Assembly (NCBI GenBank): GCA_036568505.1
Contig: DATCSK010000015.1
Location: forward strand, 29,688 to 93,687
Direction: 5' to 3'
DNA length: 64,000 nt
From: Pseudomonadales bacterium
GTDB taxonomy: Bacteria > Pseudomonadota > Gammaproteobacteria > Pseudomonadales > M0112
Shown: positions 27,445 to 29,989 of the stretch, piece after piece
How the letters are laid out: every line of letters begins with the position of its first letter
How positions within the stretch are numbered: the first letter of the stretch is position 1
Position numbers and translations under genes: made by a program
Notes under the pieces: model-generated
Databases searched by the model: none
What the model saw: the letters and a program-made list of their open reading frames with translations, nothing else
Told to the model about the DNA's origin: nothing

Positions 27445-28383
27445 ATGGTTGATATTGCGATTGCCTTGTTTGCACTGGGAGTGATAGCAGGGCTGGTCAG
27501 GTCTGATATTGCGCTCTCGAAAGGCACCTACGATACGCTCAGCATCTTGTTGATGTTCGCCATTGGTTTGAAAGGCGGTGTTGCTTTGTACGGCAATTTA
27601 AACTGGAGCATGGTGCCCGAATTGCTGGCGATTTCGGGTTTGGGCGTATTGATTCCGTTGGTTTGTTATCCGGTATTGCGTCGTCTGGTGCAGCTGAATG
27701 TGGCCAACAGTGCCAGTCTGGCAGCGCATTATGGCTCGGTCAGCGCGGGTACCTTTGCTGTGGCATTGGCCTATGTCGAGAGTCGCGGCCTGCCGATGTC
27801 ACCCCAAACCACCCTGTATCTGGTGTTGCTGGAAATGCCGGCCATTATTACCGGGATTTTCTTGTTCCGGCATTGTTCGGATTCAACCGGCGATTGGGGC
27901 GGGTTATGGCGTGAAGCGTTTACGAGCCGGGGCGTGGTGCTGTTGGTGGGGGGCGTGGTGATTGGTTTTGTCTACGGACCACAAGGCACTGCGCCTATTG
28001 CGCCCTTGTTTGTGGGCTTGTTTAAGGCTCTGCTGGCGTTGTTCTTGTTGGAAATGGGCTTAACCACGGCGCGTTTTATGGCGGAATGGAAGCGAGATCA
28101 ATGGCGACTGGTGCTGTTTGGTTTGCTGGCGCCCCCGATACTGGCTTCAGGGGGGTTGGCTTTGGCGCTGGTATTGGGTCTGCCTGCAGGCAGTGCGGTG
28201 TTATTGACCGTGCTGGCAGGCAGTGCTTCGTATATTGCGGCACCGGCTGCAATTCGCCATGCCATTCCAGAGGCTGATGTAGGCATGGCTATGTTTGCGG
28301 CCTTGGGGTTAACATTCCCCTTGAATGTATTCTTGGGTATTCCCGCCTATCATTGGATCGTGATGCAAGGACTAGGATTATGA
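27445..28383 (+). CDS. sbtA: SbtA/DUF897 family sodium-dependent bicarbonate permease
   Basis: About 10 hydrophobic segments; [42 protein letters not shown] motifs; alternative start at 27427. Confidence 0.88.
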
Positions 28384-28886
28384 GTAAAAATCAAGGCGCG
28401 CCGGTGGTGGCCGTGGTGATGGGGTCGCGTTCGGATTGGGAGACGATGTCAGCGGCCTGCGATGTGCTGGAGCGTTGTCAGGTTCCTTATCATGTCGAGG
28501 TTGTATCAGCGCATCGCACTCCAGCGAAATTGTTGGAATTTGGGCAGAACGCTGAAGCCAGCGGCTTTAAAGTCATTATCGCCGGAGCCGGTGGTGCTGC
28601 GCATTTGCCGGGTATGTTGGCGGCTGTTACGCCGTTGCCGGTGTTGGGCGTCCCCGTGCAAAGTCGGGCATTGAATGGTATGGACAGTCTTTTATCAATC
28701 GTGCAAATGCCCAAAGGTGTCGCGGTGGGTACGCTGGCCATTGGCGAGGCGGGTGCTTACAACGCAGGGTTATTGGCGTGTCAGATACTGGGCACACACG
28801 ATGCCATCTTGCGTCAGGCAATCGTTGCCTTGCGCGCAGAACAGACCCGGTCTGTTCTGGATAAGCCGGACCCTCGCGCATCATGA
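28380..28886 (+). CDS. purE: N5-CAIR mutase
   Basis: [38 protein letters not shown] overlap with sbtA. Confidence 0.97.
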
Positions 28887-29989
28887 CAGACGCATTGCTG
28901 GTGCTGGGCACCGGCCAGCTGGGCTTGATGATGGCGCAAGCCGGGGCTGCGTTGGGCATTAGTGTGGATCGGCTCGATATCGCGGAAGGCCTGCTTTATC
29001 CCGGCACATCGTCCTATGCGCTGCCGGTGATGCCAACGCAGGTGCGTGATCGCTATGCGCAGGTGACCGTGGAGCGCGAAGACCTTCTGGAAGACCCCCT
29101 TCTTGTGGAGTGGGTGCCGCAACTGATGAAAGAGACTGTCGGCTGGGCAGGTCTTTGCCGTCGGGATTGGCAAAAATCGTTATTGGATGCCTTGGGTCTG
29201 GCTACGGCACCATGGCATCGGCTGGCGAGCAGCGATGACCTTGATCGTGCCCGGAGCGCTTGGGGTGGGGTCGTCATCAAGCGCTCGCGGGGCGGCTATG
29301 ACGGGCGGGGTCAGTGGCAGTTGCGTGACGGCCAGCCGGCAGGGCTGCCTGACGATGTCTACGGTCATGCCATTGCAGAAGCCATGATTGACTTCAGTGC
29401 TGAAGTCTCTCTGGTGGGTGCCCGCACCCGTGAGGGACAGTGTCTGTTTTACCCCTTGACGCAAAACTGGCACGACCAGGGTATTTTGCGTGTGAGTCAT
29501 GCTCCGGCACGTGCAGCGGTGGATTGGCAGCAACAAGCCGAAGCCATGCTGAGCACCCTGATGCATGGCGTTGATTATGTGGGCGTGATGGGGATGGAGT
29601 GTTTTGTAACGGATGCGGGTTTGTTGATCAATGAAATAGCGCCCCGGGTTCATAACTCCGGGCATTGGACCCAAGCCGGCACCGATCTGGATCAGTTTGC
29701 GCTGCATGTGCGTTGCCATTGCGGGGTGCCTGTGCATGCACCCAGAGTGCGGGGTGAAAGCCTGATGGTGAATTTAATTGGCCACCCATTAAATAAGGAC
29801 CTGTTGACTGCCGATGGCGTGGATCTGCATTGGTATGGAAAAGCCGTGCGCCCGGGACGAAAATTAGGGCATGTCAATGTGCAGGCGCTGAATCGGTCAG
29901 CGTTGCTGGAGAAGGCGGGGGCATTGACGCCATTGCTGGATGTCGAGGCGCGAGCAGTATTGACGGATGTTCTGCAGGCGCTGACTTAG
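28883..29989 (+). CDS. purK: N5-CAIR synthase
   Basis: [46 protein letters not shown] overlap with purE. Confidence 0.95.

Follow-up and report, generated by a model that had tools for sequence, protein, structure and literature searches.

Escherichia coli purE and purK are said to have been described by Tiedeman et al. in 1989 as one unit, in which purE is followed by purK. Their products act in the carboxylation of aminoimidazole ribonucleotide (AIR) during purine synthesis. According to a review (PMC10880623), PurK uses HCO3- and ATP, PurE can work without PurK when inorganic carbon is very high, and mutants of cyanobacteria in purK depend on high CO2. Since PurK is dispensable at very high inorganic carbon, both it and a bicarbonate importer may be regarded as low-CO2 devices. 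In the window, a stretch of 64,000 nucleotides from a Pseudomonadales bacterium (GenBank assembly GCA_036568505.1, contig DATCSK010000015.1), these two types of device are found together: purE-purK is preceded, and overlapped, by a gene encoding a permease of the SbtA family of bicarbonate transporters, here termed sbtA. The gene order and the chemistry of class I PurE with PurK are those of E. coli purEK, but here the first cistron encodes the permease, its translation being predicted to be coupled to that of the next through the overlap. The most likely function of this arrangement, held with moderate confidence on the basis of sequence comparison and a structural model, would be bicarbonate import co-expressed with AIR carboxylation.

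The best-matching described transporter system is the cyanobacterial SbtA-SbtB pair (Synechocystis slr1512/slr1513; structures 7CYE, 7CYF, 7EGK, 7EGL and 8ZOR), with which the window permease shares its Pfam family, predicted fold and crossover serines. By contrast, the window permease is 312 amino acids long (374 in Synechocystis), has no long cytoplasmic loop, is approximately 21% identical to the cyanobacterial protein and has alanine in place of S327; nor is there an adjacent SbtB, RuBisCO or carboxysome, purE-purK being joined to it instead. A distant branch of the family, SbtA2 of marine alpha-cyanobacteria, has measured HCO3- uptake and rescues carbonic-anhydrase-free E. coli (PMC13187645). 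Transport was measured for SbtA1 and three of five SbtA2 proteins, the latter being only approximately 25% identical to SbtA1 (PMC13187645); the substrate has thus been conserved between deeply separated branches of the family. SbtA2 genes, likened to that of the window by description rather than by sequence, differ from it in sitting with sbtB2 and serving photosynthesis. Members of the family from autotrophic Proteobacteria are likewise reported to transport HCO3- (PMC10880623).

Outside this family, MpsAB/DAB-type systems of Staphylococcus aureus and Bacillus subtilis share with the present locus the idea that heterotrophs need a dedicated supply of inorganic carbon for anabolic carboxylations at air levels of CO2 (PMC6689103, PMC8567241), and PurK has been listed among the consumers of bicarbonate (bioRxiv 10.64898/2026.09.08.750065). 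These systems, however, belong to an unrelated protein family, and the available portions of the articles describing them mention no operon link to purEK. A parallel tie between bicarbonate import and nucleotide synthesis exists in mammals, where the mTORC1-SLC4A7 axis increases import along with nucleotide synthesis de novo (Ali et al. 2022, via PMC10912719); this differs in employing an unrelated transporter and signalling-driven translational control, with no operon. Full-text searching, from which subscription journals were largely outside coverage, found no description of an sbtA-purEK operon. The review naming SbtA, purE and purK treats them separately in the text available (PMC10880623), and a bicarbonate transporter is named in the corresponding parts of a review of purine regulation only for the mammalian axis (PMC10912719). 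Neither the transporter family nor the operon is new in itself; their combination is undescribed, and it recurs. The pairing bears on why bacteria lacking carbonic anhydrase fail in air and on which bicarbonate-dependent pathway forms the bottleneck: a transporter repeatedly joined to purEK draws attention to a single step, AIR carboxylation. Chemical complementation of carbonic-anhydrase mutants has been found difficult in heterotrophic bacteria (bioRxiv 10.64898/2026.09.08.750065).

The original prediction assigned the permease to the SbtA family, and this is borne out by a full-length match to Sbt_1 (PF05982), which spans profile positions 3-307 of 308 and, at 349.5 bits (E 2.3e-104), far exceeds the cut-off of 27. 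PurE matches AIRC (E 5.3e-61) and TIGR01162 (205.6 bits, cut-off 149.6), while PurK contains ATP-grasp (E 2.9e-49) and PurK_C (E 7.3e-16) domains, both above their Pfam cut-offs. The latter protein scores below the cut-offs of all the NCBIfam equivalogs (the best reaching 377.9 against 444, and TIGR01161 270.8 against 318.4); it is nevertheless read as PurK because it is joined to purE and is the sole PurK_C match in the genome, which likewise has single copies of purE and of the Sbt_1 gene.

Re-reading of the open reading frames (ORFs) and junctions agrees with the claim that the three genes share one orientation and are linked through two ATGA overlaps. At the sbtA/purE junction (GGATTATGAGT) and again at the purE/purK junction (CATCATGACAG), the TGA stop and the next ATG share four nucleotides. 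An AGGA motif is located 4-7 nt 5' of the purE ATG, within sbtA, and no Shine-Dalgarno sequence is visible by eye before the purK ATG; this layout fits coupling of translation by re-initiation. The 4-nt sbtA/purE overlap is also present in three further loci (L057, L055 and L052), as judged from ORF coordinates or the aligned start. Four-base overlaps are commonplace within operons and unremarkable alone, the adjacency of sbtA to purEK being the part that is above chance. The placing of the sbtA start at position 27445 is favoured by alignment with the locus of a same-genus relative: it is preferred over the ATG at 27427 because only at 27445 are the ATG and the codons following it conserved, the 27427 position being a non-ATG codon in the relative. 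The base composition of sbtA is that of the genome and of its neighbours, and a recent horizontal insertion of the gene is not supported by this measure.

The recurrence of the linkage was surveyed within Pseudomonadota, through samples of genomes from the order, class and phylum and a set of named loci. Among 41 genomes of the order, including the window's own, a full-length Sbt_1 match occurs in 12, and the linkage in 4 of the 11 others. In a genome of the same genus, der, the globin-like gene, the STAS gene, sbtA, purE and purK follow one another in identical order; two others (G014 and G016) have sbtA-purE-purK with a divergent lysR; and in the fourth (G040) the order is purE-purK-sbtA-sbtB. 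A fifth genome of the order (G005) carries a remnant corresponding to the last ~80 residues of SbtA directly before purE-purK. This remnant is a 136-amino-acid ORF (L056 5858-6268, minus strand) matching Sbt_1 profile positions 229-305, and is a decayed sbtA placed as is the intact gene of its relatives. The class sample, 401 genomes drawn evenly, has Sbt_1 in 51 and, among the 50 others, three adjacent linkages and one near one. The adjacent cases have the orders purK-purE-sbtA-sbtB (G250), purK-purE-sbtA cut by a contig end (G279) and sbtA-purE-purK with a divergent lysR (G292); in the near case (G331), sbtA-sbtB is separated from purE-purK by a single aldolase-like gene, a same-strand ORF (L051 6047-6961, plus strand) with a partial match to class II fructose-bisphosphate aldolase. 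In the phylum sample (401 genomes, 42 with Sbt_1), none of the 38 new genomes has purE within 80 kb of sbtA on one contig.

The named loci comprise the best 80 loci of the window's SbtA clade, 76 of which have the 700 bp or more of downstream sequence taken to make a locus evaluable. In 8 of these 76, purE-purK lies within 113 nt of sbtA (within 42 nt in 7 of the 8), one of the eight mirroring the same-genus locus and not being independent of it; the other 68 are unlinked to purEK. By title, no record among the eight is that of a cultured strain. The Oceanimonas baumannii locus was not counted, its purEK lying 2.5 kb off behind an oppositely oriented symporter gene. Overall, three gene orders are found: sbtA-purE-purK, purE-purK-sbtA-sbtB and purK-purE-sbtA(-sbtB). 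Two given genes of a ~3 Mb genome would by chance lie within 3 kb of each other with a probability of ~0.002 per genome, by our own arithmetic; the linkage is a minority layout, yet far above chance. Conservation of the linkage in related genomes, on which the original prediction had staked its reading, is observed: the genus retains it, and it turns up again, in three gene orders, among unrelated lineages of SbtA.

A maximum-likelihood tree of 63 SbtA proteins was built with IQ-TREE under LG+C20+F+G4, from the window permease and the full-length matches in the samples of order and class. Omitted from it were a pair of duplicate loci, the truncated sequence of G279, the G005 remnant, G175 and G292:C9 (lower-scoring, full-length) and the split fragments of G231. 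The eight purEK-linked rows occupy five separate places in this tree, the placement of the G292 row, which is on a very long branch, being unsure. The 'linked' label changes five times, at least four of these changes being forced by well-supported branches, and a single origin of linkage is allowed by none of 200 bootstrap trees; the changes may be gains or losses, and related genomes are not independent of one another. Since at least four changes are forced and three gene orders exist, the comparison suggests that the pairing of sbtA with purEK has been selected for repeatedly and does not go back to one inherited accident. These results bear most directly on the proposal that sbtA came to lie beside purEK in the genus by neutral rearrangement, with no functional meaning. 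It would fit the patchy distribution of the linkage in both the phylum sample and the evaluable clade loci, as well as the placing of the operon, in this genus, after the unrelated der, globin-like and STAS genes. It would not, however, account for recurrence in distant SbtA lineages and in different orders, with junctions of 0-42 nt in seven of the eight named loci, nor for the departure from the chance expectation, and we regard it as very improbable, the least so credited of the explanations considered here.

The structure of the permease was predicted with AlphaFold2 from an alignment of eight rows (mean predicted local distance difference test 78.6, predicted template modelling score 0.79). 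The model has the SbtA-type core/gate fold of ten helices, two of them broken and crossing, the breaks being predicted at residues 98-100 and 259-264. In Foldseek comparisons it resembles Synechocystis SbtA (7egl, 8zor, 7egk, 7cyf and 7cye) with template modelling (TM) scores of 0.84-0.89, the next-best fold, of the ASBT type, scoring at most 0.69; direct sequence similarity to Synechocystis SbtA reaches an E value of 2e-10. In that protein, Na+ is liganded by the backbone oxygens of F110, G111, A112, A320 and S322, and docking with mutagenesis has indicated S114, Y140, S324 and S327 as the residues for HCO3- (PMC8352866). G111, S114, A320, S322 and S324 are identical in the window permease, and F110 and A112, both of which make backbone contacts, are replaced by tyrosine and serine. 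The window residues S100, S260 and S262, equivalent to S114, S322 and S324, are conserved without exception in the 63 proteobacterial homologues, whether or not these are linked to SbtB. By contrast, the equivalent of S327 is alanine both here and in 58 of the 63 homologues, and Y140 aligns to leucine, a clade-specific tyrosine being present one position earlier.

These substitutions are relevant to the suggestion that the permease moves some other solute, either a small anion or a metabolite of the purine pathway, which the link to purEK would then reflect. Such a reading could draw on the low identity to the solved SbtA, on the replacement of one of the four docked HCO3- contacts by alanine and the lack of an aligned tyrosine, on the long, fully supported branch bearing the clade and its specific residues Q121 and Y125 near the site, and on the inactivity in E. 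coli of two of the five SbtA2 proteins (PMC13187645). SbtB-linked and purEK-linked proteins nevertheless have both crossover motifs, HYGSVS..T and S-A-S-Y-I-A-x-P, in common, and there is no sign of a change of substrate; HCO3- is the sole substrate reported for the family in the portions of literature consulted; and purEK-linked genes are also found in clades of the SbtB type. A different substrate is on these grounds improbable, and HCO3- transport by the window's clade is suggested by its family and predicted fold.

The window permease belongs to a long-branched clade of eight tree rows (support 100/100), none of which has an SbtB gene, whereas a PII-like gene lies directly 3' of sbtA in 40 of the 63 rows of the tree as a whole. 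This clade has at least 594 relatives in a collection of species genomes and, among its best 80 loci, SbtB is present in none while a divergent lysR lies ~100 nt upstream in ~55. Its members include Halomonas and relatives, Marinobacter, Paraglaciecola, Nitrincola, Alkalimonas and Pseudoalteromonas, and further Shewanella xiamenensis, Vibrio plantisponsor, Duganella and Ectothiorhodospira; where relatives of the permease are named, they are of Pseudomonadales type or come from other marine or alkaline Gammaproteobacteria. The observation that the window's sbtA has no SbtB partner holds, with purE occupying the place directly 3' of sbtA, but the implication that this is special does not, given the size of the SbtB-less clade. 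A large SbtB-less clade of SbtA proteins is in this way defined in common marine heterotrophs, and SbtA-type transporters would be extended beyond photosynthesis and chemoautotrophy.

No lysR gene flanks the operon in the window, and the genome contains no close copy of a relative's sbtA-linked LysR, the best match being 27% identical; the genus appears to have lost the LysR that is usual beside sbtA in the clade. The window's version is the most stripped-down form of the pairing, being without either SbtB or LysR. This raises the alternative of a general supply of HCO3-, serving acetyl-CoA carboxylase, carbamoyl-phosphate synthetase and anaplerosis, with the permease gene riding on a constitutive housekeeping operon following the loss of LysR and SbtB and having no special tie to purines. 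Consistent with this, there is a single SbtA feeding one shared cytoplasmic pool, the usual layout of the clade is a divergent lysR with sbtA alone, and the bicarbonate demand of heterotrophs is spread over several pathways (bioRxiv 10.64898/2026.09.08.750065). Against it, purEK recurs as the housekeeping partner at least four times on the SbtA tree, and a number of linked loci retain either a divergent LysR (G014, G016, G292, L080 and L132) or SbtB (G040, G250 and G331), for which reason the linkage does not merely substitute for lost regulation. A general supply is accordingly judged unlikely, though it is the alternative to which we give most weight.

The assembly (2.29 Mb in 47 contigs, 98.76% complete) yielded no RuBisCO large subunit, bacterial microcompartment shell protein, DabA or alpha-carbonic anhydrase. 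It does contain one beta-carbonic anhydrase gene, on contig C6 and away from the operon, two PII genes, both on contig C45 and not beside sbtA, and two transporters of the SulP family. The statement that no sbtB, carbonic anhydrase or Rubisco gene lies near the operon is therefore accurate, and the description of the host as apparently heterotrophic agrees with the failure to find RuBisCO and carboxysome shell genes; heterotrophy is also consistent with the marine and alkaline relatives of the permease, other autotrophic pathways not having been searched for. Two of the broader phrases in the original prediction cannot be retained. A 'purine-dedicated' supply is not supported, given the solubility of HCO3-, a pool shared with other carboxylases and the presence of the beta-carbonic anhydrase, and a 'mini carbon-concentrating module' is an overstatement, there being no sign of concentration, no compartment and no CO2-using enzyme for which to concentrate.

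In the mechanism we propose, the product of sbtA would be a secondary importer of bicarbonate of the SbtA family, made from one sbtA-purE-purK mRNA with coupled translation, such that the amount of importer would track that of the AIR-carboxylating enzymes. Imported HCO3- would join the cytoplasmic pool, from which PurK would draw HCO3- and, with ATP, form N5-carboxyaminoimidazole ribonucleotide (N5-CAIR), to be converted to carboxyaminoimidazole ribonucleotide (CAIR) by PurE. No other enzyme of purine synthesis than PurK uses HCO3-, and PurK is itself needed only at low CO2. With no second purE or purK in the genome, any synthesis of purines requires expression of the operon; it is probably constitutive alongside housekeeping genes, and the importer probably likewise, since SbtB and the divergent LysR are absent in the genus. 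The pairing would have been assembled repeatedly by selection in heterotrophs of marine and alkaline type, and its presence in a small-genome, non-CO2-fixing bacterium of marine type points to a putative way of sustaining purine synthesis when CO2 is scarce.

Several observations weigh against co-expressed bicarbonate import as the function. Besides the distance of the permease from Synechocystis SbtA, its altered S327 and Y140 positions, and the absence of linkage from the phylum sample and from most clade loci, the beta-carbonic anhydrase and the two SulP transporters mean that SbtA is neither the sole possible source of HCO3- nor protected from leakage. Moreover, a soluble HCO3- pool cannot be purine-specific without channelling, of which there is no sign here, and the transcription unit may begin as far upstream as bamB-der. 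A wider hypothesis is that AIR carboxylation is the anabolic step that first limits the growth of marine and alkaline heterotrophs at scarce CO2, SbtA and PurK forming a 'low-CO2 kit' that has been assembled often; this is possible, though we are doubtful of it. In its boldest form, the importer and PurK may meet at the membrane, HCO3- being handed over before carbonic anhydrase dissipates it.

The habitats of the clade also suggest a role for the permease in Na+/HCO3- and cytoplasmic pH homeostasis under saline or alkaline conditions, its position before purEK being incidental. Going by the titles of their records, the named members fall largely in genera that are halophilic or alkaliphilic (Halomonas and relatives, Alkalimonas, Nitrincola, Natronospirillum and Aliidiomarina), and in one relative the gene directly 3' of sbtA encodes an NhaA Na+/H+ antiporter. 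High pH, however, also entails scarce CO2, so a bicarbonate supply fits the pattern of habitats equally, and the repeated joining to purEK would be left unexplained; we find this explanation still more improbable than a change of substrate.

Signals for transcription were sought around the operon. A consensus scan found no sigma-70-like promoter on the plus strand from der to purK (25000-30000), returning fewer promoter-like sites than in shuffled sequence, and no convincing terminator was found by scanning between der and purK. Comparison of 23000-31500 with Rfam gave nothing at E <= 1, and the window has no PurR operator with up to three mismatches to a 16-base consensus, a weak negative given that the order may not use this regulator. 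Since neither promoter nor terminator was found from der to purK, the transcription unit may begin at the spacer before sbtA or further 5': the 69-nt spacer may carry a promoter, or the operon may be read through from der. The bamB, der, globin-like and STAS genes 5' of sbtA are on one strand with short gaps or overlaps (Table 1), and the latter two may be co-transcribed with sbtA-purEK.

Table 1. Positions in the window of the sbtA-purE-purK genes, their junctions and neighbouring features
Feature	Position	Strand	Remarks
sbtA-like permease gene, 312 amino acids	27445..28383	+	Sbt_1/SbtA family, SbtB-less clade; alternative, unconserved ATG at 27427
purE, class I N5-CAIR mutase, 168 amino acids	28380..28886	+	AIRC and TIGR01162 matches
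purK, N5-CAIR synthetase, 368 amino acids; HCO3-- and ATP-using enzyme	28883..29989	+	ATP-grasp and PurK_C
ATGA stop/start overlap, sbtA/purE	28380..28383	+	Read directly from sequence
ATGA stop/start overlap, purE/purK	28883..28886	+	Read directly from sequence
Spacer before sbtA, 69 nt	27376..27444	+	Blocks conserved in same-genus locus (alignment)
Weakly globin-like gene, 138 amino acids	26528..26944	+	Bac_globin E 0.0058, below cut-off
STAS-domain gene	most likely 27061..27375	+	STAS E 1.7e-5
Class I S-adenosylmethionine methyltransferase gene, convergent	29986..30990	-	Stop overlaps purK stop; ends gene string
bamB	23950..25125	+	Upstream, co-oriented
der	25147..26550	+	Upstream, co-oriented

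A number of further observations were made at related loci. Just 5' of sbtA-purE-purK in G014 lies a 95-amino-acid ORF with hydrophobic stretches and no Pfam match (L055 6921-7208, minus strand), which has no counterpart in the window, where the spacer is only 69 nt. The NhaA-type antiporter gene mentioned above (L013 91-1278, minus strand, in G029) follows an SbtB-less sbtA and would fit the sodium cycle of a Na+-coupled importer. A gene with a phosphoribosyltransferase domain (L075 1473-2093, minus strand, in G137) is located 3' of an unlinked sbtA of the clade, and may be a neighbour involved in nucleotide metabolism. One complete genome of 1.1 Mb (G629) has an Sbt_1 match (E 1.8e-90) and no purE match, and would represent a reduced genome that has the transporter but lacks AIR carboxylation.

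Within the window, the globin-like gene and then the STAS gene are situated between der and sbtA, with no partner kinase gene adjacent. These two genes were considered as general partners of SbtA and rejected, being found beside sbtA by tblastn in the same genus only. A globin fold and a STAS domain are the domain pair of RsbR-type stressosome proteins, and the two genes could together encode a split sensor.

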